DNA of 64,000 nucleotides from Gemmatimonadota bacterium (GTDB lineage Bacteria; Gemmatimonadota; Gemmatimonadetes; Gemmatimonadales; GWC2-71-9). The number at the start of each line of letters is the position of its first letter. The first letter of the stretch is position 1. The stretch spans positions 1,664-65,663 of the forward strand of contig JBKPAO010000060.1 of assembly GCA_046726475.1 (NCBI GenBank). Reading direction: 5' to 3'. Of the stretch, positions 18,241-62,720 are shown one piece after another. The notes below the pieces were generated by a model. That model ran no database searches and was not told where the DNA came from. It saw only the letters and a program-made list of their open reading frames with translations. Made by a program: the position numbers and the translations under genes.

Positions 18241-18313
18241 AGGTCTAGGGTCTCTGGTGGCGGGCCAAATGTGCTCCCCCCCTTATAGCCCTAGACTCTA
18301 GACCCTAGACCCT
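18241..18313. repeat. mirror array, heptamer GGTCTAG / CTAGACC
   Basis: AGGTCTAGGGTCT (18241-18253), a 37-nt spacer, then CTAGACT CTAGACC CTAGACC CT (18291-18313). The arms are reverse complements (13 bp with one bulge). Confidence 0.85.
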
Positions 18314-20698: not shown

Positions 20699-20723
20699 AC
20701 TTGACACAGCTTATCGTTTCTTG

Positions 20724-20747
20724 CCCCGCTTCCCCGCCGCCCTGCTT
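20724..20747. repeat. solo C-rich octamer array CCCCGCTT CCCCGCCG CCCTGCTT
   Basis: Seen directly. The unit family is the same as at 28343-28374 and 44884-44936. Only a weak G-rich partner exists (GGGGCAAC, 20797-20804). Confidence 0.6.
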
Positions 20748-28000: not shown

Positions 28001-28266
28001 TGAGGTTCCTCCCGCAGGGGTTTCCACCAATCGAAGGAGGCATCTTTTACGATATCGGGCTGGTCTGGGACGAAGAATCTACAATCCGATGGAGCCGGAA
28101 GGAGGGGGATGATCCCGTGAATGTCCGCACTCCGTTGCGAGTGTTCGGAGCTTCACTACGGGCCAACGTCTTCGGCTTCGCCATCGCACGGCTGGAATAT
28201 GCGGTCCCGCAGAATCGCCGGGGGGTCGGTGGACTGTGGACGCTCAGTCTGGGTCCGACATTTTAG
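25057..28266 (+). CDS. outer-membrane protein: MA-type metallopeptidase-like domain + TolB-like PD40 beta-propeller + Omp85/surface-antigen-like beta-barrel
   Basis: It has a signal peptide and an HEMAH (HExxH) motif. There are five (W/L)SPDG PD40-type repeats. The C-terminal ~450 aa are beta-rich and end ...WTLSLGPTF, with the terminal Phe typical of OMPs. Confidence 0.78.
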   Translation: MLRRAAPIVLSLLLAPALLPAQYFGRNKVQYSTFDFKVIQTEHFDVYYYERERVAAMDAARMAERAYARLSKVLNHDFRERKPIILYASHSDFQQTNALGEPPSEGTGGVTDFQRNRAVMPFTGSYAEFEHVLQHEMAHQFQYDTWSRGRAGGGLSTIIAINPPLWFAEGMAEYLSIGPINPETAMWLRDASLEGSLPSIEQMTLDPYRYFPYRFGHALWSYIGERWGDEAVGAILKATLAGGIEGAFRRTIGLTLDQLSDQWRDAVQKKYLPEIGARAKASAIADELLTEKRSQGTLHLAPALSPDGSRVAYFSEKDFYYVDLYLADGTTGKVKRRILKSGVSSNYETYRFINSQANWSPDGKFLAFAAKRGGRDDIVIVDVDRNKQVKRIELKLSGVTTPSWSPDGKQLVFTGYDGGLSDLFVVSRDGGNLRRLTQDKYADLHPVWSPDGHTIAFATDRGGHTDFKTLDIGNMRIALYDLDLGSIQVLDQMDQGKNVSPQWSPDGTSIAFVSDRNGVSNIFLYELNAKALYQLTDFYTGTQGITPLSPVLSWAAQADRLAFCYFEKGKYDVYTLANPRSLKHQPYQRTAPDSSGMLAAVTATPVDTTRSLQVPEEVRSQVGEGGSIYRSPQGFRSSSEVTRTGDTTISTPPVSIAALLDSARYNLPDTSEFSVKKYRVHFMPDYVARPAIGYSRDNFGRGFFGGAAVSLSDILGNHQLVFAGYVNGRISEAQVLAAYINMSRRINWIAGISQEPYYFYEPSQVRVDEPAPGLNTFVTNVRRLVVRSAFGQAYYPISRFQRIEANLRVANVDDAVLSILEPYNPFSGFATDDPTLETNNQPGVTYVQPSAALVFDNSLFGYTGPFYGRRWRLDFAQTIGDWRYSQITADYRRYDKIAGPVILALRLFYFGRIGRDTDRFRIFGGSTDLIRGNTSGSYRRHECLNANDVNTRTGCAELDRLVGSQIGITSAELRFPILTPAMRFLPQGFPPIEGGIFYDIGLVWDEESTIRWSRKEGDDPVNVRTPLRVFGASLRANVFGFAIARLEYAVPQNRRGVGGLWTLSLGPTF

Positions 28267-28374
28267 CAGCGGGCAGCGGGGCAACAGGCCCGCGGGGTGG
28301 TTACAGTTGCAGAGACACGACTCTCAGAATGCTCTGGCGCCGCCCCCCTGCCCCGCTGCCCTGCTGCCCCGCTA
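28266..28374. repeat. mirror array, octamer CAGCGGGG / CCCCGCTG
   Basis: GCAGCGG GCAGCGGG GCAACAGG (28266-28288), a 54-nt spacer, then CCCCCCTG CCCCGCTG CCCTGCTG CCCCGCTA (28343-28374). The left arm starts at the last base of the upstream TAG stop. Confidence 0.85.
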
Positions 28375-28384
28375 TCTTCCGTCC

Positions 28385-29779
28385 GTGAAATTCCCAGTCA
28401 TACTGTTGGGAGCCGCCGCCGTCCTGATCAGCTCGGCGTGCAAGGGCTCCTCCGACCTCGCGACCGGCAGTCTGTCCGGGACCTCGCGTAGTCTCCCCAG
28501 TGTCAGCGTGCTCCGTATTCCGAAAGAGGGGGGCCTGCCCCGCCTGTACCGCGCTCCAGGCCTCGACTCGGCCGCGTGGAAGTCAGCCGAGCGGCTCCCG
28601 CCCATCGAGCGAACGATCGGCGCCGATCCCGAGCAGGGCCTCGTGTTCGCGCTCGATCGCAAGAACAACGTCGTCGGTGTTGACCTGGATACGCGCCGAG
28701 TCAGGACGTTCTTGGAGAACGTCCGCTATGCCGCGCTGGGACCGGACGGCGCTCTCTATGCCGTGGATACGGGGAGCACCGTTACCCAACTGGTCCGGCG
28801 AACGCCGGTGCGGTTTCGGTCCAAGCTCCAGGGCAAGCCGCTGGAGATGCAGGGCACCATGGACGGTGCCCTGCTCGCCCATCTGGCCGGAAACCACTCG
28901 GCACTCGAGTTCCTCGGATCCGACCAGCCACCGACCTCGACCGAGCTGCCTAAGGGGCAGGTCACCTCCAGCTTTCTCGGCGACCTGGTAGCTGTCGCGG
29001 CGGACACGGCAGTCATTCTCTACACTCCGCAAAACAAGTCGAAACCCAAGGTCATCCCGGTGGAAGGTGATGCCCGGGCTGTCCTCTTCTCGCCTTCCGG
29101 TCATCGCCTCTATGTCGCCCGGGCAGCGGCACCGCTGCTCATACTGGATCGCTACGAGGGCACCCGTCTCCGCGAGATCGAGCTGCCGGGCCCGGCTCGG
29201 GGACTCCGGAGCGATCTCTATGGAAGCTGGCTTCTGGTCCAACCGGAGAACGCCGACTCGGTTTGGGTGATCGACGTCGGTACCGGCAAGTACGCCGGTG
29301 CCACCGCCGCTCGGTGGACTGCTGATCTGCCGGCAGTGGCCGCGCCCCACACTCTTCTGCTGCGACGCGGTAGTGACTTGGTCGCCCTCGACCTCGGCGC
29401 ACCTGGCTTCAAGGAGGTCGGCAGGGTTCCCGGCGGGGCCACCGACTTCTGGCTGCCGCTGGCATGGCATCCGCCTGCGGAGAACGAGCTTCCCATCGAG
29501 TCCGATTCGACGTCCACCGCGTCGGCAGACAGCAGCGCGAACCGACCGACCGTGTACCTCCAGGTGAGCAGCTCGCAGAATCCTACCTGGGCCAGCGAGC
29601 TCTCCGAAAAGCTTCGGGCAGCCGGCCTCCCTGCGTCGGTGCTGACACCTCGTCGCTCAGAGGAAGCCTATCGTGTCGTGTTGGGACCATACGCCACCCG
29701 CGAGCAAGCGGAGGAAACCGGCCGCAAGCTCGGAATGCCTTCATTTATAGTCACAGCCCAGGACCAGTCGGCTAAATAG
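28385..29779 (+). CDS. SPOR domain-containing lipoprotein
   Basis: GTG 28385 gives VKFPVILLGAAAVLISSACKG (lipobox). The C-terminus ...VYLQVSSSQNPTWASELSEKLRAAGLPASV...YRVVLGPYATREQAEETGRKL... is a SPOR fold pattern. Confidence 0.7.
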   Translation: MKFPVILLGAAAVLISSACKGSSDLATGSLSGTSRSLPSVSVLRIPKEGGLPRLYRAPGLDSAAWKSAERLPPIERTIGADPEQGLVFALDRKNNVVGVDLDTRRVRTFLENVRYAALGPDGALYAVDTGSTVTQLVRRTPVRFRSKLQGKPLEMQGTMDGALLAHLAGNHSALEFLGSDQPPTSTELPKGQVTSSFLGDLVAVAADTAVILYTPQNKSKPKVIPVEGDARAVLFSPSGHRLYVARAAAPLLILDRYEGTRLREIELPGPARGLRSDLYGSWLLVQPENADSVWVIDVGTGKYAGATAARWTADLPAVAAPHTLLLRRGSDLVALDLGAPGFKEVGRVPGGATDFWLPLAWHPPAENELPIESDSTSTASADSSANRPTVYLQVSSSQNPTWASELSEKLRAAGLPASVLTPRRSEEAYRVVLGPYATREQAEETGRKLGMPSFIVTAQDQSAK

Positions 29780-32800: not shown

Positions 32801-33286
32801 GGCACCGCACGGACGATGTTCGTGGACACGTTTACCGCGATCCAGGCCAACTTCTCCAAGGTGTTTCAAACCCTGTTCGGCGGAGGCGAATGCGAGCTTC
32901 GCCTCGCCAGCCCGGATGACCCGTTGGAGAGCGAGATCGACATTCACGCCGCACCGCGCGGCAAGCGCACCCAGCGCATCCACCTCCTCTCCTCCGGCGA
33001 GCGCACGCTGGTGGCCGTGTCCCTCCTCTTCAGTATCTACCTTACCAAACCCAGTCCCTTCTGCCTCATGGATGAGGTGGACGCACCGCTCGACGACGCC
33101 AACGTCGGCCGCTTCACTCGCCTGCTGGAGGAGTTCAAGGACGAAACCCAGTTCCTGGTCATAACCCACAATCCTCGGACGATGCAGTCGGCCGACGCGG
33201 TGTACGGGGTGACCATGCAGGAGCCGGGCGTGTCGACGATCGTTGGAGTACGGCTTGGCGAGCGGGAGCAGATTGAAAGAGTCTAG
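29807..33286 (+). CDS. smc: chromosome segregation protein SMC
   Basis: Walker A is GPNGCGKSN. There are long coiled-coil arms and a hinge. The C-terminus has ...LLSSGERTLVAVSLLF... and Walker B FCLMDEVDAPLD. Confidence 0.95.
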   Translation: MKLTKLELSGFKSFADTVTLTFDQGVTAIVGPNGCGKSNVSDSVRWVLGEQSARLLRGGKMEDVIFQGSAARRPVNVTEVSLFLDNSDGDLPIAYREVVVTRRLSRSGQSDYLLNGSPVRLRDIQDLLRGTGLGSDAGAVIEAKMIDLLLSDRAEERRSLFEEAAGIGLYRDRKHSTERRLEETAVDLQRVEDLIAEVQSQIRSLARQRGKAERHAKLSEEKFAVQLTLARRQLEHLSEEVAGMETRYAELAELRPAARERLAQSDHLREHGVHARATAEARRTEITHRLATLRVEIGRLEGDLALASERLAHASSRRLRAAEERTHMEQRAQQASLEQSSAAEDHQTAAAEHTRIGRELAGRAEAEEAVRRKLSDQRATVRQLEQDLQHYAQSLKSLEGERAALEGELLALRERAAQAEAHRSRLSLELGEAQQSHGLAAENADTSTRDAKRATASADHARHLVAETREREAMHRADRRQAEESLAQLTARRQALEELERDRVGLAPGAAALLGAREQFDGGVLGPLSDFVSTGREKAELAERLLGEWMHAVLVRDADSVNAIQAWHAEHQPGALVLLPVDPGPVTPSTEAAFAEQLQAEGPAAGWVRAALAGSEVLDENGRVLRRASGAIFLSGQGAPFGPIRRRAELATVLDETEQAERSLSGADAALRDTIERLRELEQTLADATSAAERARDAERLAAASREDASRIVGNLTREVAESETQLQRINERVAASEQRLREIDRSLTAGELTRSRVEEELGASRILLSDLEAEQEAAREQRAHWQVQEAHLAGSLRAAAERLERAGRTRAEAEESARALSSELAQLETDAAGLATQQGEWLEALAERRVALQELDSASSQAEAELSSAEEALAAAEREVAAVRGELESAGDESHALEVRLTEVAGLRRSIVDRVEAEWHRPFDQLMDSAVPLELDMETLETEASRIHAALESIGPVNPLAVEEHAEESKRLEFLTSQRDDLVSARQSLMQAIREIDGTARTMFVDTFTAIQANFSKVFQTLFGGGECELRLASPDDPLESEIDIHAAPRGKRTQRIHLLSSGERTLVAVSLLFSIYLTKPSPFCLMDEVDAPLDDANVGRFTRLLEEFKDETQFLVITHNPRTMQSADAVYGVTMQEPGVSTIVGVRLGEREQIERV

Positions 33287-33403
33287 GGTCTAGGGTCTAG
33301 AGTCGAGGATCTAAGCCCAAGGGGCACAGGTTGATCCGACTGTGGCCTCGCGGGCCTGGCATGCAGCGTGCATGATTAGACCCTAGAAGGCCGACTCTAG
33401 ACC
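33281..33403. repeat. mirror array, heptamer GTCTAGG / CTAGACC
   Basis: GTCTAGG GTCTAGG GTCTAGA GTCGAGG ATCTAAG (33281-33315), a 60-nt spacer, then TTAGACC CTAGAAG GCCGACT CTAGACC (33376-33403). The smc TAG stop (33284-86) lies inside unit 1. Confidence 0.85.
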
Positions 33404-41091: not shown

Positions 41092-41177
41092 GTGAACAGT
41101 GAACGGTAAACAGTAAACGGGGCGCGTCCGTTCCCTCCGGTTTACTGTTCACTGTTTACTGTTTACTGTTGCTTACT
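41092..41177. repeat. mirror array, heptamer GTGAACA/GTAAACA vs GTTTACT/GTTCACT
   Basis: GTGAACA GTGAACG GTAAACA GTAAACG (41092-41119), a 21-nt loop, then GTTTACT GTTCACT GTTTACT GTTTACT GTTGCTTACT (41140-41177). Hand pairing of 41092-41118 with 41140-41166 gives 23 Watson-Crick pairs, 3 G-T pairs and 1 mismatch. Confidence 0.88.
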
Positions 41178-42886: not shown

Positions 42887-43599
42887 GCCCTATGCGGTTC
42901 GGAGACAGAACACTGGTCTGGTACTTGGCCGTAGCGACGCTCGGCGCGATCCCCCCAGTCCAGGCCCAGAGCCAACCGGTCGTCGTGGCGATTCTCCCGT
43001 TCGAGGACCGTGGCTCCTACGGCCAGGATAAGGAGGTCTTCCGCGCCTTGCAGCTCGGCATTCCCGCGACCATCGCCGGGGAGCTGGCCGGGCATCCGGA
43101 GCTGCGGCTGGCGGACGCCGGCCGCATCACCCGCGCGCTGCCGAGCGGGGGCGTGAATTCGAGAACCAGGCTGGACGCGAGTACCGCGGCGCAGGTCGGC
43201 AAGGAAGCCGGCGCTCGCTACGCCATCACCGGCAGCTTCGCCGATTTCTACGGTAAGATCCGACTCGATGCCAGAATCATCGACACCGGTACCGGTCAAA
43301 TTCTCAAGGTTGTCTCCAACGATCTCCGGCAGGACGATCGATCGCAGCTGTACAGCATCATCCGAACTGTCGGTCACAAGGTGCTCGCCGCGGCGAGTGG
43401 TTCAGGAGCTGGCCGAGCGCCACCGCCCAACGAGGAGCGTACCATCCCCACCGAAGCGCTCACTGAGTACAGCCTCGGACTGCTCTACGAGCGGGAAGGT
43501 GATAAGGCCCGCGCAGGGGAGCACTTTCAGCGCGCGATTGCGAGCTTCTCCGACTACCGCGACGCCAGGGAAGGGTTGACCCGAGTAGCGGGCTCCTGA
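42883..43599 (+). CDS. hypothetical periplasmic protein (TolB_N-like domain + TPR-like C-terminus)
   Basis: It has a signal peptide. ...VAILPFEDRGSYG...ITGSFADFYGKIRLDARIIDTGTGQIL... resembles TolB-N/FlgO-type domains. The tail is ...YSLGLLYEREGDKARAGEHFQRAI.... There is an ATGA overlap with the upstream gene. Confidence 0.5.
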   Translation: MSPMRFGDRTLVWYLAVATLGAIPPVQAQSQPVVVAILPFEDRGSYGQDKEVFRALQLGIPATIAGELAGHPELRLADAGRITRALPSGGVNSRTRLDASTAAQVGKEAGARYAITGSFADFYGKIRLDARIIDTGTGQILKVVSNDLRQDDRSQLYSIIRTVGHKVLAAASGSGAGRAPPPNEERTIPTEALTEYSLGLLYEREGDKARAGEHFQRAIASFSDYRDAREGLTRVAGS

Positions 43600-44834
43600 T
43601 TCGTACTCAGCCGGTGCACGGCGGCCGCAACCCCGGCGTGGGCAGGCAAGGCCAAGGCGATGACATCGCCGTTCACCTGATAAAACTGCGGAAACAGCTT
43701 CAGGATCAGCCCCAGGAGGGACAGCCCGGCTACCACGGCCGCGACCACCAGGGCAGGCCTTGCCCTGACGGGAGAGCCGAATACGGCTCGGGTGAGGAGC
43801 CAGATCAACGGTAGACTCAGGAGATTGGCCTGGAGGGCATTCTCGTTGTCGTAGGCCGCCGCGTGATCGGTGAGCGCCCACAGACCGACGAGTACCAATC
43901 CAGCGATGCCGCTGGCCAGACACCACATCCAGGTGGTCAGCAGAAACGCCCATTTCGCTACCGAGCTCCTTCGCACCGCACCGGAAAACCCGAACACCAG
44001 CCCTCCGACAGCGACTCCTCCCAGCAAATACATCGGTAACCAACCCGGCGGCTGGGCGGGAGGAATCGGCTCGCTGGATTGGAACAGCGTCCGCTCCGAT
44101 TTGACCAGCGGTACCTCGCGGCCGTCGGCTCCAGTGACTGTGACGGTACGAACCCACTCGCGCACCGCCAGGGGCAGAAACATCTCCTGCCAGGCCGAGA
44201 TAGGCCGGTCCACCGGGTGACCAAGCGCCAGCAGCAATCCGGTGAACACCAGAGGATCGTTTGCGGTCAAACGCTGGGTGTGGAATCGGTAGGTCCGTCC
44301 AGTCATGACAGTCTCGGTGCGTTTCCTGAGTCTGGCGCCCAGCGCTCGATCCAGGGCATCGCGCACTCGCGTCGAGCAGTTGTCCCGATAGTAGTCGTAG
44401 TGGTAGAAGCGGTGCTCCGGTTGCTCGTTCCACTCCAGAAACGCCTGAAGCTCGCGGCGCTTCCCTACCGGGATCTCGAGCTCCTGCACCCAGACCGACC
44501 GATTAGCCCTCCGGTACGACTCGACATAGGACTGCGCAGGAAAGCCCTGCATCCAGTACCACATTCGTCCCTGGACGAATCGCAGGAGAAAGTTGTGCTG
44601 CCGGAAGTCGAACAGCCCATAGTTGTATGCCTGATCGGTCCCGTGAGCGGGATCGTGAATCCAGATGGCATTGTGTCCGAACCGCTCCCAAACCTGCTTG
44701 CCGGGACCCATGGTCATCAGGTACACCCTTAGCAGGGTGTCCTGGGGGGAAGCGGGGAAGCGGGGAAGCGGGGAACTCTGTTGGGCAGCCAGCGGCGTGC
44801 TGAAAAACACAGCAACAAGGACGATGGGTCTCAC
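43554..44834 (-). CDS. DUF4105 (Lnb N-terminal periplasmic domain) protein with C-terminal multi-TM region
   Basis: ...VYLMTMGPGKQVWERFGHNAIWIHDP...YNYGLFDF... is the DUF4105 pattern. GTG 44834 gives the signal peptide MRPIVLVAVFFSTPLAAQ. The alternative start is ATG 44717. The ORF-track N-terminus (to 44942) is repeat-encoded. Confidence 0.68.
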   Translation of the reverse strand: MRPIVLVAVFFSTPLAAQQSSPLPRFPASPQDTLLRVYLMTMGPGKQVWERFGHNAIWIHDPAHGTDQAYNYGLFDFRQHNFLLRFVQGRMWYWMQGFPAQSYVESYRRANRSVWVQELEIPVGKRRELQAFLEWNEQPEHRFYHYDYYRDNCSTRVRDALDRALGARLRKRTETVMTGRTYRFHTQRLTANDPLVFTGLLLALGHPVDRPISAWQEMFLPLAVREWVRTVTVTGADGREVPLVKSERTLFQSSEPIPPAQPPGWLPMYLLGGVAVGGLVFGFSGAVRRSSVAKWAFLLTTWMWCLASGIAGLVLVGLWALTDHAAAYDNENALQANLLSLPLIWLLTRAVFGSPVRARPALVVAAVVAGLSLLGLILKLFPQFYQVNGDVIALALPAHAGVAAAVHRLSTNQEPATRVNPSLASR

Positions 44835-44936
44835 GAAGACGTGAATCCACTGTCCCGCCCATTCCCCCACAAGCAGGTACCCGCCCCGCTGCCCCGCTGC
44901 CCTTCCCCGCCTCCCCGCTTCCCAGCTTCCCCGACC
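44746..44936. repeat. mirror array, octamer GGGGAAGC / CCCCGCTT, bracketing the DUF4105 start region
   Basis: GGGGAAGC x3 plus GGGGAACT (44746-44777), 106 nt, then CCCCGCTG CCCCGCTG (44884-44899) and CCCCGCCT CCCCGCTT CCCAGCTT CCCCGACC (44905-44936). Confidence 0.88.
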
Positions 44937-44938
44937 CC

Positions 44939-45973
44939 TCACAACGTCACATCCCGCCCATCAAACGCCGACCGATAGATCGCGTCGACCACCTTATGGA
45001 GGGTCAGATGTTCCTGCAGCGCGGGGATCTTTGCCTCACCCGCGATCGCTGCCTGGAAGTGAGCCCACTCCGCCCGATAGGAAGCGGTGAAGGCGTTTTC
45101 CCGGCCCACTGATCCGGTCGGTGAAACGTCCACGGCAACGCCGTGCAGCTCCTTCCAGACGTTAAGCGGATTGATGCCAGCCGTTCCCTTACTCCCCCGA
45201 AGGCCCACCCCGAATCGTTCGCCCTCACCCAGGTGCCGCCAGGTGACATCCACAAAAATCGAGGTGCCGTTTTCGCAGATCACGAACGCGCTTCCCGACT
45301 GTTCGACCGTGCGATCCTTGCCGATCGGATCGAGACTCGCGCTCACTCTGGCGGGTGGTGAGCTTCCGCCCAGCCAGAGGCCGAGGTCTAAAATCGAGAG
45401 CCCGAGGTCGAGCATGGCACCGCCACCTGCCTGGTCCTTCCGCTGGCGCCAGCCCAGCTGCGTGCGTCCCGGGCGGAAGGCGTGCCAGCTTCCCCGGATA
45501 CTTTCGATCGTGCCGAGCTCTCCGCTCTGGACGAAGCTCCGAACAATCTGCACGTCAGGCCGGTAGCGGTGATTCATCCCCACCATCACGACTCGATCCC
45601 GCTTCTCCACTGCGCGCAGGATTTTCTGCACGCCTGCGGCGGACATCGCCAACGGCTTCTCGACCAGCACGTGCAGGTTGGCGGAGAGGGCGGCTTGAAT
45701 GTGCGGCTCGTGAAGGTGGGTCGGTGAGCAGATGACAACCGCGTCGAGCGCCGCGTAGCGCAGAAGGTCTTCGATGTCGTCGAAGGCGTCTTTCACCCCG
45801 AATCTGTCGGCCAGCGCCTTCGCCTTCGGCAGATCGGTGTCGCAGATCGCCTGGACTTCGACACCACGCATTTTCTTGAGCACCGGCAGGTGGGCCACCT
45901 GAGTGATCGCACCACCGCCGACGATCCCGACCTTGAGTCGCTCATTCGTGCCCGCGCTACGGCCGCCGGTCAT
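44939..45973 (-). CDS. Gfo/Idh/MocA family oxidoreductase
   Basis: The N-terminal Rossmann motif is LKVGIVGGGAITQVAHLPVL. The family has typical length. Confidence 0.85.
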   Translation of the reverse strand: MTGGRSAGTNERLKVGIVGGGAITQVAHLPVLKKMRGVEVQAICDTDLPKAKALADRFGVKDAFDDIEDLLRYAALDAVVICSPTHLHEPHIQAALSANLHVLVEKPLAMSAAGVQKILRAVEKRDRVVMVGMNHRYRPDVQIVRSFVQSGELGTIESIRGSWHAFRPGRTQLGWRQRKDQAGGGAMLDLGLSILDLGLWLGGSSPPARVSASLDPIGKDRTVEQSGSAFVICENGTSIFVDVTWRHLGEGERFGVGLRGSKGTAGINPLNVWKELHGVAVDVSPTGSVGRENAFTASYRAEWAHFQAAIAGEAKIPALQEHLTLHKVVDAIYRSAFDGRDVTL

Positions 45974-47861: not shown

Positions 47862-47931
47862 GTCATCCTGAGCGAAGCGAAGGATCTCTCCGCTCGCCGA
47901 GAAGGGATCCCTTCGCTTCGCTCAGGATGAC
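47862..47931. repeat. palindromic element GTCATCCTGAGCGAAGCGAAGGATC (25-bp arms, 19-nt loop)
   Basis: The left arm is 47862-47886 and the right arm GATCCCTTCGCTTCGCTCAGGATGAC is 47906-47931, with one extra C. Related fragments lie at 51264-51311, 59718-59743 and 62278-62321. Confidence 0.88.
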
Positions 47932-52253: not shown

Positions 52254-52397
52254 GAGGTTCGAGTCGAGAGTCGCGAGTCGAGAGTCGCGAGACCCGTTGC
52301 GTGACTACCGTCACGTGAAAGGCTTGACCCTCGACACCAACCTGCTCTCAAAAACTCGTGACTCATGACTCGTGACTCTCGACTTTCGACTCGACTA
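52254..52397. repeat. mirror array, heptamer GAGTCGM / KCGACTC
   Basis: (GAGGTTC) GAGTCGA GAGTCGC GAGTCGA GAGTCGC GAGACCC (52254-52295), a 58-nt spacer, then ACTCGTG ACTCATG ACTCGTG ACTCTCG ACTTTCG ACTCGAC TAG (52354-52397). The ALDH TAG stop (52395-97) lies inside the last unit. Confidence 0.88.
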
Positions 52398-56958: not shown

Positions 56959-57767
56959 CAGTCCCGCGCGAGCGGCGCGATCGCGAGCAGACCGCCTCTA
57001 CGGTAGCCGGCGGGGTCCAGCTCGACCTGGTCGAAACCAAAGCTGCCGAAAGCGGCATCGATCGAGCTCCAGTTAGCCCGCAGCCGATCCATCTGCTCGG
57101 GGGCTACCTCCAACCGGGCCTTGGCTCCGTAGTGCCGCACCCGGAGGTCTCCTGTGACTCCGAGCTGCCGCAGAAACGCCTCTCCCTGCTCTACTTGCCT
57201 AAGCCGCTCTGAAGTAATCTCTAGCCCGTAGAGCACCCGGCTGGAAAGGCACGGCGCGGCCGGAGCGTCCCAGGTCGGAAGCCTCAGCTTGCGGGCGGCG
57301 GCACGGACCTGGGACTTGCTCCACCCCAGCTCCGCAAGCGGCGAGCGGACCCCGTATTCCTTTATAGCGCGAAGACCGGGCCGGTGGTCGCCCAGGTCGT
57401 CGGCATTGGTTCCATCCATGATTACGTCGTACCCACCTTCTTGCGCGACCGCTCTCAAACGGCGCCACAGCTCCGACTTGCAGAAGTAGCATCGCTCGGT
57501 CGTGTTCTCGAGGTAGCGGGGGTCGTTCAGCTCCTGGGTGTCGACCTCGAGCAACGGAATGTGGAACTGTTGGGCGAGCCGGACTGCGTTTTCGGCCTGG
57601 ACTGCAGGATACGACGCGCTTCGTCCCATGACGGCGAGGAAGCACTCCGGCCCGAGAGCTCTCGTCGCCGCAACCGCCAGAAGAGCGGAATCGACGCCAC
57701 CGGAGTAGCCGAGCACGGCACTGCCGAGGGAGTGGAGCTGGACGTAGAGGTTTTCGAGGTCGGGCAT
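56958..57767 (-). CDS. larE: PP-loop ATP-utilising enzyme, LarE-like sulfur transferase family (TIGR00268-type)
   Basis: It has the PP-loop YSGGVDSALLA and ...ERCYFCKSEL.... ATG 57767 is the start (MPDLENLY...). The assignment to LarE function itself is by family only. Confidence 0.72.
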   Translation of the reverse strand: MPDLENLYVQLHSLGSAVLGYSGGVDSALLAVAATRALGPECFLAVMGRSASYPAVQAENAVRLAQQFHIPLLEVDTQELNDPRYLENTTERCYFCKSELWRRLRAVAQEGGYDVIMDGTNADDLGDHRPGLRAIKEYGVRSPLAELGWSKSQVRAAARKLRLPTWDAPAAPCLSSRVLYGLEITSERLRQVEQGEAFLRQLGVTGDLRVRHYGAKARLEVAPEQMDRLRANWSSIDAAFGSFGFDQVELDPAGYRRGGLLAIAPLARD

Positions 57768-57778
57768 GGGGGAAACGT

Positions 57779-57878
57779 AAGCGGAAAGGCGGTAAGGCGG
57801 TAAGGCGGAACGTGTCCCCACGTTCCGTCGTTCCCCACGTTCCGCCGTTCCCCACGTTCCGCCGTTCCGTCGTTCCGC
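57779..57878. repeat. mirror array, octamers AGGCGGWA vs CGTTCCGY (8-9 nt) around a central GGAACGTG/CACGTTCC hairpin
   Basis: AAGCGGAA AGGCGGTA AGGCGGTA AGGCGGAA (57779-57810). The central palindrome is 57807-57826. Seven CGTTCC-type units follow (57821-57878), including a 17-nt repeat CGTTCCCCACGTTCCGC x2. Confidence 0.85.
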
Positions 57879-57890
57879 CTAACTTCCCCC

Positions 57891-58325
57891 ATGCCCGACG
57901 GCTTCCTCGAAATCACCCCCGACCTCCGTCTTCCCTTCCTCGAGCTGGAGTACCTCGCCTCGCGTTCCGGCGGCCCCGGCGGCCAGCATGTGAACACGTC
58001 CTCGACCCGGATCGAGCTCTGGTGGGATGTGGCGCGATCGCCCAGTCTCACTCCAGAGCAGCGGTCATGGTTGCTGAAGCGACTCGCACCGCGCCTTGAT
58101 TCCGAGGGGCGTCTCCGGCTGGTCTCCAGCGGGTCGCGAAGCCAGCTCAGGAATCGAGAGGACGTGACCGAGCGACTGCGAACCCTGGTGGCAGCGTCGA
58201 TGGTGGTACCCAAGAAGCGGAAGCCTACCAAACCTACCCGCGCGGCAAAGGCGGCCCGCCTGGAAGCTAAGCGCCGCCGTGCGACCACGAAGCAGCAGAG
58301 GCGTGCTCCCTCGCCCGACGACTAG
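57891..58325 (+). CDS. arfB: alternative ribosome rescue factor ArfB (peptidyl-tRNA hydrolase, GGQ)
   Basis: It has ...SGGPGGQHVNTSSTR... and a basic C-terminal tail (KKRKPTKPTRAAKAARLEAKRRR). Confidence 0.88.
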   Translation: MPDGFLEITPDLRLPFLELEYLASRSGGPGGQHVNTSSTRIELWWDVARSPSLTPEQRSWLLKRLAPRLDSEGRLRLVSSGSRSQLRNREDVTERLRTLVAASMVVPKKRKPTKPTRAAKAARLEAKRRRATTKQQRRAPSPDD

Positions 58326-59210: not shown

Positions 59211-59681
59211 ATGCCCACTACCCTTGCACCGGAGCAGACCGCGGCCGCTCTGCGCCAGCTCCATGCCTCGCTTCTAGACTCCTGGAACCGCCGTGACGCA
59301 GCGGGGTTTGCCGCACTGTTCACACCTGCGGGAAACGTCGTCGGATTCGATGGAAGTCCGGTGGACGGAGCCGGCACCATCCGGGATCACCTGCAGCAAA
59401 TCTTCACCGACCACCGTCCCGCCGCCTACGTTGCCATTGTGCGGGAAGTGCGCCAGCTCGGCTCCGACACGGCGCTACTTCGTGCGGTGGCGGGAATGGT
59501 GCCACCGGGAAAGACCCAGGTGAATCCCGCGGTGAATGCCATCCAGAGTCTGGTCGCGCGGCAGGAGAAGGGACGTTGGCTGATCGAGCTGTTCCAGAAC
59601 ACGCCGGCGGCGTTTCACGGTCGTCCCCAGGAGGCGGCAGCCCTCACCGCTGAACTGCAGCGGCAGTCGGACGCGAAGTAG
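59211..59681 (+). CDS. SgcJ/EcaC family (NTF2-like, DUF4440) protein
   Basis: ...LLDSWNRRDAAGFAALFTPAGNVVGFDG...GRWLIELFQNTP... is the family pattern. Confidence 0.72.
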   Translation: MPTTLAPEQTAAALRQLHASLLDSWNRRDAAGFAALFTPAGNVVGFDGSPVDGAGTIRDHLQQIFTDHRPAAYVAIVREVRQLGSDTALLRAVAGMVPPGKTQVNPAVNAIQSLVARQEKGRWLIELFQNTPAAFHGRPQEAAALTAELQRQSDAK

Positions 59682-59785
59682 GAGGACGGGCGGACAGGCG
59701 GAGTGACGTTCAGACCAGTCATCCTGAGTGAAGTGAAGGATCCGTTCCTTCCCCGTCCGCCTGCCCGCCTGTCCGCCTGTCCGCC
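59681..59785. repeat. mirror array, octamer AGGCGGAC / GTCCGCCT with a nested half palindromic element
   Basis: GGAGGAC GGGCGGAC AGGCGGAG (59681-59703), a 51-nt spacer, then GTCCGCCT GCCCGCCT GTCCGCCT GTCCGCC (59755-59785). The spacer contains GTCATCCTGAGTGAAGTGAAGGATCC (59718-59743). Confidence 0.88.
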
Positions 59786-62390: not shown

Positions 62391-62645
62391 ATGATTCATT
62401 CGATCGTGCGCTCCTGTTTCGCCGGCACCCTCCTCTGCGCCTGCGCCGGTGCCACGCAGAGCAGCCAGAGCGCGGTACCCGTCAAGCACGAACCTGATTG
62501 CAGCTTCCGATCGGCCAGCACCTGCTGGACAGTTTCCGGCAGGTTTCCTGCCGCGCGTCCGAGCGGTACCCCTCAGCTTCCTAAGACCCTCGAGGCTCCT
62601 GCCTCACTCGCGGCCGGTCGCCAGACGCCAGACACTAGTCGCTAG
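62391..62645 (+). CDS. possible small lipoprotein (hypothetical)
   Basis: MIHSIVRSCFAGTLLCACAG is signal/lipobox-like and the first half has reasonable GC3. The RBS is poor and the 3' end runs into the heptamer array. Confidence 0.3.
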   Translation: MIHSIVRSCFAGTLLCACAGATQSSQSAVPVKHEPDCSFRSASTCWTVSGRFPAARPSGTPQLPKTLEAPASLAAGRQTPDTSR

Positions 62646-62720
62646 TTCCCAGTCATCGGTCCTCAGTCGTTAGCCGGCATTGATCAGTCCGCCAGTCCGC
62701 CTGTCGGCCTGTCCTCGCCT
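62637..62720. repeat. two adjacent direct arrays: AGTCNNN x6 (7-nt period) and GTCCGCCW x4 (8-nt period)
   Basis: AGTC/AGTT/AGTC/GGTC/AGTC/AGCC start at 62637, 62644, 62651, 62658, 62665 and 62672. GTCCGCCA GTCCGCCT GTCGGCCT GTCCTCGCCT follow at 62687-62720. No inverted partner was seen nearby. Confidence 0.75.

Follow-up and report, generated by a model that had tools for sequence, protein, structure and literature searches.

Complementary tandem octamer arrays in the coding leader of an Lnb-like gene of Gemmatimonadales look like a stem that is maintained where a stop and a start codon overlap

In a 64,000-nt stretch of DNA from a Gemmatimonadota bacterium, referred to here as the window, two complementary tandem octamer arrays fall within the first 66 codons of an Lnb-like gene and flank its signal peptide. 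These arrays look like a maintained stem at the stop/start junction with the upstream gene, as opposed to an on/off repeat switch, because dozens of related soil bacteria share the paired design, with different repeats. Should the stem function as proposed below, it would represent a clear natural case of a coding-sequence helix enforcing translational coupling, in which both helix strands encode protein and the sequence is free to change while the arms match. The start at GTG 44942 furthermore corrects the annotation of a widespread gene, for which database entries use three different start codons. To our knowledge, neither the many tandem octamer and heptamer hairpins of fixed polarity in soil Gemmatimonadales nor the replacement of an arm-enclosed leader at a much higher rate than its flanks has been described; a literature search on Gemmatimonadota repeat hairpins and octamer mirror arrays yielded nothing specific.

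By its predicted architecture, the protein is a member of the Lnb family, with five transmembrane helices behind an N-terminal periplasmic DUF4105 domain; acyltransferase function is putative. The same arrangement is known from Lnb of Bacteroides, a housekeeping lipoprotein N-acyltransferase of the DUF4105 family (PMC11573676). The Pfam Lnb_N match begins at residue 71, the 5TMH_Lnb match reaches 24.5 bits and thus lies slightly below the cut-off of 25.2, and the number of homologues is 3021. The upstream Gfo/Idh/MocA gene is syntenic in nearly all orthologous loci. Neither a promoter-like nor a terminator-like site was found in 44400-45300, which fits co-transcription of the gene pair. Rfam returned no match at gathering score for the locus, the only hits being sub-threshold plant miRNA-precursor hairpin models (32.8 bits versus 168), and known RNA families are represented across the whole window by one tRNA only. 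The features of the locus are listed in Table 1.

Table 1. Features of the Lnb-like locus in window coordinates.
Feature	Position	Strand	Remarks
Lnb-like/DUF4105 CDS	43554..44942	-	462 codons from GTG 44942; Pfam Lnb_N 4.4e-22, 5TMH_Lnb 3.1e-5
Gfo/Idh/MocA-family oxidoreductase gene, upstream	44939..45973	-	Pfam GFO_IDH_MocA 7e-31; C-terminus ...GRDVTL*
GTGA overlap	44939..44942	-	start GTG 44942-44940 (Lnb-like) over stop TGA 44941-44939 (Gfo/Idh/MocA)
5' arm region, G-rich octamer array on mRNA	44884..44938	-	codons 2-20; TRF 6.6 copies
5' arm core	44903..44932	-	30 nt pairing with 44746-44775; 93% complementary; paired in MFE and centroid structures
Enclosed segment, 127 nt	44776..44902	-	remaining N-terminal extension and signal-peptide core (translation)
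Internal GTG, codon 37	44832..44834	-	possible alternative start; CTG in L082, TTG in L081, hence not conserved
3' arm, C-rich octamer array on mRNA	44746..44775	-	TTCCCCGC x3.8; codons 57-66 SPLPRFPASP; TRF
ATG, codon 76	44715..44717	-	within conserved YLMTMGPGK motif; gene-caller start in some database entries

The orthologue set comprised 140 Gemmatimonadales loci, with 60 arm-bearing members spanning 56-99% protein identity and with uncultured MAGs as the source of all relatives. Comparison of these loci shows that the conserved start is the GTG of the GTGA, at 44942 in the window. An NTGA start/stop overlap is present in 138 of the 140 loci (135 GTG, one ATG in L056, one TTG in L157, and one CTG), its start shares the reading frame of the gene in 135-137 of the 140 even though the leader, counted from the GTG to the MTMGPG motif, varies from 105 to 291 nt, and the frame is open through the leader in 132; in arm-less orthologues the GTGA leads straight into MRPAVLLSLLL, and a hydrophobic segment lies between the arm positions in all orthologues. 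The sequence-only reading had favoured GTG 44834, with ATG 44717 as the other candidate, and had placed only one arm within the CDS. Both starts were rejected: GTG 44834 is CTG in the closest relative, L082, the in-frame NTGA start being conserved instead, and ATG 44717 is preceded in frame by LTVYL, which is conserved in all orthologues, and by the signal peptide. Translation would thus begin at GTG 44942, and both arms therefore lie within the CDS. Database calls of 387 aa (P0003 and others) were considered as frameshifted 'off' alleles; for P0003 this was discarded, its stop-to-MTMGPG spacing of 197 nt being equal to that of the 454-aa entry P0134.

On the plus strand, positions 44746-44775 consist of 3.8 copies of GGGGAAGC (100% matches, TRF score 60), and 44884-44933 form an irregular CCCCGCTT-type array of 6.6 copies with 71% matches and 13% indels. 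In mRNA sense, the 5' arm region reads GGGGTC GGGGAAGC TGGGAAGC GGGGAGGC GGGGAAGG GCAGCGGG GCAGCGGGG, a mixture of GCGGGGAA-type and GCGGGGCA-type units which is translated into the peptide RGRGSWEAGRRGRAAGQRG and begins at 44938, abutting the TGA of the upstream gene. This peptide is rich in Gly and Arg and extends the signal peptide at its N-terminus; the hydrophobic run I40-F47 of the signal peptide is encoded by 44825-44802, and its likely cleavage site follows LAA (A53, 44786-44784). The 3' arm encodes a Pro-rich linker from the signal peptide to the conserved LRVYLMTMGPGK strand, with the frame kept in the orthologues. The existence of the arrays, their complementarity, their position around the signal-peptide segment and the translation of the downstream one as a linker were thus correctly read beforehand from the letters alone. 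The spacing of 106 nt given there applies to the gap between the two whole arrays, whereas the paired arms of the best ungapped inverted repeat (28 of 30 nt complementary) stand 127 nt apart.

The minus-strand RNA of 44735-44945 has a predicted folding energy of -127.6 kcal/mol compared with -97.3 +/- 4.8 in dinucleotide shuffles (z = -6.3; 0 of 200 shuffles equally good), and the plus strand folds about equally well (z = -7.2). The 16-mer GGGGAAGCGGGGAAGC, with up to three mismatches, occurs 12 times in the window versus 1.8 expected, seven of these copies being located within the two arms. Each strand of the locus contains at least four runs of at least G3 with loops of at most 7 nt.

The 60 arm-bearing loci draw on more than 12 different unit families, and the 5' arm of every locus matches the 3' arm of that same locus. 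The period is 8 nt in 52 of 55 periodic leaders and 9 nt in the other three. The 5' arm begins 4-10 nt past the start GTG (median 8 nt after its G), and the 3' arm about 165 nt into the CDS, just past the signal peptide. Arm-bearing orthologues show a median fold z of -4.55, with 31 of the first 40 CDS nucleotides paired long-range, compared with -1.0 in arm-less ones. The computed cost of opening -15 to +19 around the GTG has a median of 33.5 kcal/mol in 52 arm-bearing loci versus 19.0 in 36 arm-less loci (p = 3e-12), and amounts to 28.5 kcal/mol in the window. For eight unit families, the true assignment of 5' to 3' arms is the single best among 40,320 permutations. Across 48 loci, 92.4% of cells are paired compared with 56.7% in shuffles, none of 500 of which reaches the observed score, and 271 double-sided changes are counted versus 72, the pair counts being inflated because the arms were chosen by complementarity. 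Mismatches between the arms comprise 30 G:U versus 50 A:C, so there is no sense-strand wobble signature; as a test of RNA against DNA, a G:U excess proved uninformative or slightly contrary, in part owing to coding constraint. At 31 of the 50 A:C mismatches, a 3'-arm change that re-establishes the pair would entail Pro>Leu, Arg>Cys or a stop, which points to a probable dual constraint from coding and pairing at these positions.

Long-range occlusion of an initiation region is classically known from the MS2 coat-replicase and rpmI-rplT systems. At 4-nt stop/start overlaps, translational coupling with RNA structure blocking independent initiation has been described as termination-reinitiation (Huber et al. 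2019, PMC6728339). The pair studied here likewise consists of co-directional genes with a 4-nt NTGA overlap and, in silico, an occluded downstream initiation region. We tentatively propose, at somewhat less than an even chance, that the arms would form a long-range helix in the 5' coding end of the Lnb-like gene, coupling its translation to that of the upstream oxidoreductase via the GTGA overlap. On the polycistronic mRNA, this helix would bury the initiation region from +4 to about +40 and presumably deny a free 30S subunit a start. A ribosome that terminates at the overlapping TGA would already keep the helix base open, could re-initiate on the GTG and would unwind the remaining helix during elongation. 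Synthesis of the Lnb-like protein would therefore be strictly dependent on, and proportioned to, upstream translation. The tandem 8-nt units would then be a means of stem growth and renewal, through slippage inside an arm and copying between arms, and no frameshift device; both arms are probably tolerated because the coding segments that contain them are the two under the weakest constraint, namely the signal-peptide n-region and the linker behind it. The idea with the strongest support is a stem that takes in the initiation region, as already suggested by the sequence-only reading, since the arms covary from orthologue to orthologue; the region concerned is that of GTG 44942 and not of GTG 44834. 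In contrast to the termination-reinitiation pairs, in which the upstream ribosome would likewise open a stable helix predicted to bury the downstream initiation region, the occluding partner here lies downstream, within the CDS of the regulated gene itself; in addition, both helix strands are translated tandem 8-nt repeats that are swapped wholesale between close relatives, and coupling is a prediction.

Several observations leave room for other interpretations. The lack of a wobble signature means that pairing could be kept at the DNA level or by copying, without selection on the mRNA. The initiation region of arm-less orthologues is already costly to open, so an extra stem may be unnecessary for coupling. 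Since similar hairpins are also found between genes in any orientation to each other, their presence does not require a gene-specific role. Two observations also speak against a coupling stem, namely that 74 of the 140 orthologues are arm-less and that many A:C mismatches which silent or conservative 5'-arm changes could repair have nevertheless been left unrepaired.

At least six other tandem-unit hairpins lie in the window, between genes that are divergent, convergent or arranged in tandem. A scan for long inverted repeats with a score of at least 15 gave 11 overlapping 300-nt scan windows, equivalent to six distinct sites in 64 kb, and none in three shuffles. In 415 kb of related DNA, tandem arrays most often have period 8 (82 of 237 arrays), and some unit families are shared with unrelated loci, the unit at window position 59684 matching the leader unit of L025 and that at 57820 the leader unit of L030. 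All of these hairpins have the purine arm 5', and those at 52392, 28267 and 59682 start 0-5 nt from a stop codon. One of them, at 41095-41170, looks functional, as judged from a T-run behind it in terminator-like arrangement and from its conservation with covarying units in L010, L081 and L082.

Arm-bearing leaders are hypervariable cassettes, in which the sequence between the arms is replaced at a much higher rate than the flanks. Units turn over between near-identical backgrounds, and loops of equal length differ by 69-81% without gaps. Such divergence corresponds to unrelated sequence, without graded divergence, so that point-mutational hypermutation was rejected and replacement or recombination of the loop is more likely. 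In an extended interpretation that we consider unlikely, the arms and the signal peptide would constitute a cassette of about 170 nt, built into the Lnb-like coding leader from an undescribed class of self-renewing Gemmatimonadales hairpins (tandem 7-9-nt units, usually GCGG-core octamers, with the purine-rich arm always 5'). These would be made and homogenised by a dedicated or lineage-specific mechanism, and the cassette would be swapped or rewritten at a rate well above that of neutral sites in the genes on either side, with diversifying selection possibly acting on nucleic acid rather than protein.

A rather doubtful alternative to the coupling stem would regard the arms as a by-product of a lineage-wide repeat process. 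Gemmatimonadales would make and renew tandem hairpins of 7-9-nt units by slippage coupled with template switching from one inverted arm to the other or gene conversion between them, and such hairpins would persist here only because the n-region and the post-signal-peptide linker tolerate nearly any in-frame low-complexity sequence; complementarity would then reflect copying, with neither selection nor a gene-specific function. The number and varied intergenic orientation of the other hairpins, the prevalence of period 8, the leader units at unrelated loci, the unit turnover, the missing G:U excess and the often unequal arms (6.6 versus 3.8 units in the window, 6 versus 18 in L066) are all consistent with this. 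However, the arms occupy two constant positions in all 60 arm-bearing loci, with the 5' arm always a few nucleotides from the start, across their whole range of protein identity, and deletion-prone tandem direct repeats would be expected to be lost without selection. At least one member of the hairpin class looks functional, and the shared polarity would not arise from a process confined to double-strand DNA. The purine-first order, by which the C-rich arm is paired upon synthesis, also fits a different device at the RNA level, which we judge quite unlikely: a site of RNase III cleavage or other processing, or a transcription or decay attenuator, that would set the ratio of upstream to Lnb-like expression or mask the C-rich linker RNA from Rho. 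A nearly perfect GC-rich helix of 30 bp is long enough as a substrate of RNase III, and the hairpins that begin next to stop codons agree with such a role. In Haemophilus influenzae, hmw1A is under the control of a 5' hairpin that is built from repeats and cleaved by RNase III (PMC12721329). Cleavage in both arms, on the other hand, would sever the start codon from the body of the CDS, and the 3' arm has no U-tract behind it; from the coupling model itself, the sequence offers nothing to separate this device.

Phase variation, the logic favoured by the sequence-only reading, would have one octamer gained or lost in a coding arm shift the frame and switch the protein off or on. We consider it highly improbable, even though an 8-nt unit, not divisible by 3, lies inside the CDS in both arms. 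Two of the 60 arm-bearing loci do have an out-of-frame GTGA start, caused by a 5' array 7 nt shorter than in the close relative L007 (L015) or by a 1-nt defect in a 9-nt array (L028), and L062 and L092 contain stop codons between the arms; yet all four have an internal start just ahead of the hydrophobic core, and the other 56 are in frame and open. Apart from the shifts in L015 and L028, no in-frame/out-of-frame unit polymorphism was seen among close strains: five near-identical strains all encode 462 aa, and the window and L082 have equal unit counts. The shared spacing of P0003 and P0134 agrees with this, and the unit-number change observed between L066 and L074 (96 nt) keeps the frame. Moreover, the 9-nt units of three leaders are incapable of shifting the frame, the tracts are short (3.8 perfect units in the window), and Lnb of Bacteroides is a housekeeping enzyme and no surface antigen. 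Still less probable is a G-quadruplex element, in which G4 structures formed by the G-rich arm, as RNA or non-template DNA, and by the G-rich strand complementary to the other arm would regulate transcription or translation. The motif had been recognised beforehand at this locus and is indeed present on both strands, but its canonical form is found in only 19 (sense) and 20 (antisense) of 34 arm-bearing orthologues, the families GCGGTACG, GCGGTCAG, GCGGAACG and GCGGACGG contain GG runs only and keep full complementarity, and the competing 30-bp duplex is far more stable. With out-of-frame alleles rare, some units of 9 nt and the quadruplex motif in about 56%, neither phase variation nor G4 formation is the conserved logic. 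Finally, inverted repeats of 20-44 bp around a short segment would fit an invertible switch in which recombination between the arms would flip the 127-bp signal-peptide segment, a chance that we take to be close to negligible. The ORF is continuous across this segment in 132 of 140 loci, divergent leaders in close backgrounds show only baseline identity (0.54-0.65) to each other's reverse complement, and inversion was rejected on these grounds; a conserved recombinase site is lacking because the arm sequences differ between lineages.

The locus resembles several known repeat systems in part. Phase variation of the Neisseria opa genes works through CTCTT coding repeats in the signal-peptide region, so that both systems have short repeats with a unit that is no multiple of 3 in a leader-peptide coding region. 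Unlike the one long direct array of opa, with frequent out-of-frame alleles and no complementary partner, the Lnb-like locus has two complementary arrays, rare out-of-frame alleles, some 9-nt units and a housekeeping-type gene. The long hairpin in the 5'-UTR of hmw1A, which RNase III processes, has a heptamer SSR as one of its arms (PMC12721329). Both systems place a tandem repeat of short units in an arm of a long RNA hairpin, at the 5' end of a gene whose product is exported, but in hmw1A there is one repeat arm, located in the UTR, and its variable unit number tunes expression, whereas in the Lnb-like locus both arms are coding repeats with a unit number that stays the same among close strains.

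Cyanobacterial STRR are intergenic heptamer direct repeats. TAACTGA heptamers form intergenic direct repeats near start codons in Beggiatoaceae, cyanobacteria and Bacteroidetes (PMC4679880). These elements share with the present arrays the lineage-specific tandem 7-nt units beside starts or stops and the indels in unit steps; they differ in belonging to one sequence family per genome and in being almost always direct, not paired inverted arrays. We know of no covarying partner arm described for them. Rickettsia RPEs are palindromic elements inserted in frame (PMC2229807). REP, BIME and REPIN elements are extragenic palindromes (PMC2817692). As with these two groups, the hairpins described here are scattered over the genome, often just behind stops, and some are tolerated in frame, but their loop at the Lnb-like locus is ordinary coding sequence for a signal peptide without a mobile-element part. 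REP sequences, in addition, are many near-identical copies of one sequence, whereas here each locus has its own unit and the arms are internally tandem: in the window, the octamer unit is essentially confined to this intragenic locus, and the other hairpins use other units. A REP-like palindrome, GTCATCCTGAGCGAAGCGAAGG, is present at 47862-47931, separate from the octamer arms. The GAAGCGG and AGCGG motifs within some units resemble Firmicutes Chi sites, although most unit families contain neither.

The arms of the Lnb-like (DUF4105) gene are real and conserved and are no chance repeat. Two properties make them unusual, namely their membership in a lineage-wide class of tandem-unit hairpins and the cassette-like hypervariability of their leader, i.e. 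the stretch from a GTGA stop/start overlap to the conserved MTMGPG motif. The arrays and their complementarity, as described accurately by the sequence-only reading, were confirmed by repeat search and folding; its layout stands, corrected in two points only: the second array is not perfect, and it follows immediately on the upstream stop codon. Ungapped, the best inverted repeat joins 44746-44775 and 44903-44932 (30 nt each, 93% complementary, spacing 127 nt). For mRNA-sense (minus-strand) RNA from 44735-44945, a folding energy of -127.6 kcal/mol was predicted (z = -6.3 against 200 dinucleotide shuffles), with a single long helix formed from both arrays in the MFE and centroid structures, and the predicted fold of the opposite-strand RNA is equally good. 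Stems of comparable length occur at six sites in the 64-kb window, whereas shuffled sequence contained none.

Genes, arm arrays and tandem-unit hairpins of the window (plus-strand coordinates)
Feature	Position	Strand or setting	Description
Lnb-like CDS	43554-44942	minus	Pfam Lnb_N (DUF4105), 4.4e-22, from residue 71, and Lnb transmembrane domain
Upstream oxidoreductase gene	44939-45973	minus, same strand as Lnb-like gene	Gfo/Idh/MocA
3' arm array	44746-44775	plus-strand reading	perfect GGGGAAGC x3.8
5' arm array	44884-44933	plus-strand reading	irregular CCCCGCTT-type, 6.6 copies, 71% matches, 13% indels
5' arm, coding	codons 2-20		RGRGSWEAGRRGRAAGQRG, Gly/Arg-rich extension of the signal peptide n-region
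3' arm, coding	codons 57-66		SPLPRFPASP, linker after the predicted cleavage site between LAA and Q
Hairpin 18243/18289	18243-18313		tandem 7- or 8-mer arms
Hairpin 28266/28338	28266-28388	between stop TAG 28264-28266 and GTG 28385	GCAGCGGG and CCCCGCTG arrays
Hairpin 41095/41140	41095-41170	upstream of Crp/Fnr-like gene	heptamers AACAGTR / YACTGTT
Hairpin 52262/52355	52261-52392	minus-strand genes	GAGTC/GACTC heptamer arrays, 18-score stem
Hairpin 57777/57820	inner arms 57777-57808 and 57820-57877		octamer arrays, unit as in the L030/L031 leaders
Hairpin 59684/59765	59680-59785	between convergent genes	octamers GGACGGGC GGACAGGC / GTCCGCCT

In Bacteroides, Lnb is a lipoprotein N-acyltransferase in which five transmembrane helices follow a periplasmic DUF4105 domain (PMC11573676); export of this N-terminal domain is therefore required, and with it a signal peptide. 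Homologues of the Lnb-like protein gave 3021 matches, the named ones being Gemmatimonadales MAGs. Orthologous loci (L numbers) were collected from metagenomes (80), from species-representative genomes (80) and from two close relatives; by name, the genome records all belong to uncultured Gemmatimonadota MAGs, except one labelled Bacillota. Among the 140 loci with an identifiable upstream stop and MTMGPG motif, 138 show an NTGA stop/start overlap (135 GTGA and one each of ATGA, TTGA and CTGA), while the remaining two (L034, L037) were mis-located in that scan and have GTGA by another. The distance from GTG to MTMGPG varies between 105 and 291 nt and is a multiple of three in 135 of 140 loci, to which the mis-located L034 and L037 can be added; the GTGA-initiated frame is open in 132 of 140. 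In arm-less orthologues a canonical signal peptide follows directly after GTGA, for example in L005 with MRPAVLLSLLLVLQ. From the overlap and the kept frame it follows that the conserved start is GTG 44942, which overlaps TGA 44941-44939 of the upstream gene, and that both arms are coding, not one of them as assumed from the sequence alone. That reading favoured GTG 44834 as the start, a codon for which L082, the nearest relative (99.5% identity to the window across the initial 600 nt of the mature gene), has CTG and L081 has TTG. The conserved strand LRVYLMTMGPGK contains ATG 44717.

The GTGA frame is broken in four of the 60 arm-bearing loci (L015, L028, L062 and L092), and since in each of them an internal start lies shortly upstream of the hydrophobic core, a start such as 44834 may act as a fallback, though not as a rule. 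In the Nanopore-derived MAG L092 (CAWGVB010000020.1), the frame is disrupted twice, in a compensating manner, around the segment for the signal peptide; either the allele is truly broken or the G/C runs carry homopolymer errors, and caution is advised with long-read MAGs at this leader.

A long ungapped stem (stem score of at least 15) is present at the equivalent position in 60 of the 140 loci. In these, the 5' arm starts at a median of 8 nt past the G of GTG, the enclosed segment comprises 59-141 nt, and the 3' arm finishes just before LTVYL. The units vary by locus (GCGGGGAA, GCGGGGCA, GCGGGGAG, GCGGTACG, GCGGTCGG, GCGGTCAG, GCGGACGG, GCGGAACG, GCGGGCAG, GGAACGAG, GGGGGGCA and GGCGGACC, among others), and in every arm-bearing locus the two arms match one another. 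For eight unit families, the true arm pairing was the unique optimum of 40,320 permutations. Over 48 distinct stems, 92.4% of the cells in the outer 18 bp are paired compared with 56.7% after shuffling of partners, double-sided changes number 271 compared with 72, and 0 of 500 shuffles reached the observed covariation, figures to be read with the caveat that arms were picked by complementarity and that the sequences are related. The median fold z against shuffles is -4.55 for arm-bearing and -1.0 for arm-less leaders.

Units recur every 8 nt in 52 leaders and every 9 nt in three (L028, L065 and L070, unit GGACGGAGA), the period being unclear in five. Of 34 arm-bearing loci, only 19 on the sense strand and 20 on the antisense strand contain a canonical G4 motif, the basis of the quadruplex idea in the sequence-only reading. 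Phase variation by gain or loss of units had also been envisaged there; when octamers were counted across related strains, unit number was unchanged among five near-identical ones. Where numbers differ, as in the 3' arrays of L066 (about 18 units) and L074 (6 units), the difference of 96 nt keeps the frame; the GTGA start is out of frame only in L015, which is shorter by 7 nt than L007, and in L028, through a 1-nt defect. Because period and G4 motif are not conserved and unit number is stable or frame-keeping, neither frameshift logic nor G4 formation is the maintained property; what persists is complementarity. The 9-nt-unit arms (GGACGGAGA / TCTCCGTCC; L028 420-720, L065, L070 1565-1860) mark an MTFGPG sub-clade and translate as RTERTE... 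and SPSSPSSPS.

Leaders were compared between locus pairs whose mature genes are 92-99% identical in their first 600 nt. Where both loci bear arms (n=25), median leader identity is 63% versus a baseline of 56.5% for unrelated leaders, so that these leaders are essentially unrelated; where both are arm-less (n=11) it is 87% (p = 1e-4, the pairs not being independent), with a divergence close to that of third codon positions of the gene, about the neutral rate. The replaced stretch takes in the signal-peptide segment plus the arms, and its borders are sharp, with divergence setting in right after GTGA and ending just before the LTVYL codons. In L017/L089, flanks of 100% and 98.8% identity enclose a leader of 50% identity, and L007/L010 are a further sharp-bordered pair; together with L083/L085 and L026/L041, these arm-bearing examples have flanks 95-100% identical around unrelated stretches of about 170 nt. 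In L026/L041 and L060/L141 the arms are retained and the enclosed segment is replaced. Leader type is incongruent with the flanking gene tree, L083 having a leader like L006 and a mature gene like L085. Recombination of a cassette of about 170 nt offers the simplest account, with the arms and the highly conserved flanks perhaps acting as crossover points.

The earlier notion of a stem at the initiation region is supported in outline. The computed cost of opening -15 to +19 around GTG, the region that the 30S subunit must occupy, is 33.5 kcal/mol for arm-bearing loci, 28.5 for the window and 19.0 for arm-less loci. A ribosome terminating at the overlapping TGA would already cover the helix base, and a shift by one nucleotide would suffice to reach GTG. 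Since the initiation region is costly to open and a terminating ribosome would stand at the helix base, we propose that the helix may suppress independent initiation and thus enforce termination-reinitiation coupling to the upstream gene, extending the structure-linked coupling suggested for overlapping pairs in E. coli (PMC6728339). Alternatively, the arms could have other roles at the RNA level, such as RNase III processing, attenuation, or Rho shielding of the C-rich linker RNA. Against a simple story of RNA selection stand the lack of a G:U excess over A:C mismatches (30 versus 50), the persistence of many mismatches which silent 5'-arm changes would cure, and the absence of arms from more than half of the orthologues. 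In 31 of the 50 A:C mismatches, repair in the 3' arm would mean Pro to Leu, Arg to Cys, or a stop, and this protein cost is evidence that the 3' arm is under double duty for pairing and coding. We classify the element as a possible case of structure-enforced translational coupling, or as a repeat-built leader hairpin.

Further hairpins with tandem 7- or 8-mer arms occur in the window in tandem, divergent and convergent intergenic settings, several starting only a few nucleotides from a stop codon. In all tandem-unit hairpins seen, with one short exception, the purine/G-rich arm is 5' and the pyrimidine/C-rich arm 3'. Among 237 tandem arrays in 415 kb of related DNA, a period of 8 is more frequent than any other (82 arrays), and a GCGG core is found in 69 of 81 period-8 arrays versus 17% of random 8-mers, the arrays not being independent. 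Rfam gave no family match for any of these hairpins, and a description of the class was not found in the searched literature, the nearest relatives there being the hmw1A repeat hairpin (PMC12721329) and intergenic heptamer repeats (PMC4679880). Some members at least look like ordinary functional RNA hairpins, as the one upstream of the Crp/Fnr-like gene is followed on the minus strand by a T-run (GTTTTCTT), terminator-like, and is kept with covarying units in L010 (3822-3914), L081 (4258-4299) and L082 (6270-6348).

GTG 28385 opens a lipoprotein-like ORF (MKFPVILLGAAAVLISSAC), and a 19-codon uORF (ATG 28329) traverses the 3' arm before it, its TGA 28386-28388 overlapping this GTG as GTGA. The GAGTC/GACTC stem begins 3 nt past stop TAG 52395-52397 of one minus-strand gene and leaves about 15 nt to the ATG of the following one. 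The 57777/57820 arrays are enclosed in a 141-nt palindrome (57759-57899) between divergent ORFs, whose outer arms hold both start codons (TTCCCCCATGCCCGAC per strand); both proteins start with MPD. In the hairpin between convergent genes, an arm of 18 nt matches that of the L025 leader at every position, and the loop holds a copy of the REP-like motif GTCATCCTGAGTGAAGTGAAGGATC. Short-unit arrays adjoin stop or start codons at 18243-18313, 33281-33313, 20712-20745 and 62619-62714 (CCCTAGA/GTCTAGG heptamers, lone CCCCGCTT-type, GCCAGAC and CAGTCCGC), with short partners in some and none in others. A perfect 22-bp palindrome with a 26-nt loop (GTCATCCTGAGCGAAGCGAAGG, 47862-47931), also found in L028 (1809-1896) and L071 (3790-3873), represents a dispersed element of REP-like type and does not belong to the tandem-unit hairpins.
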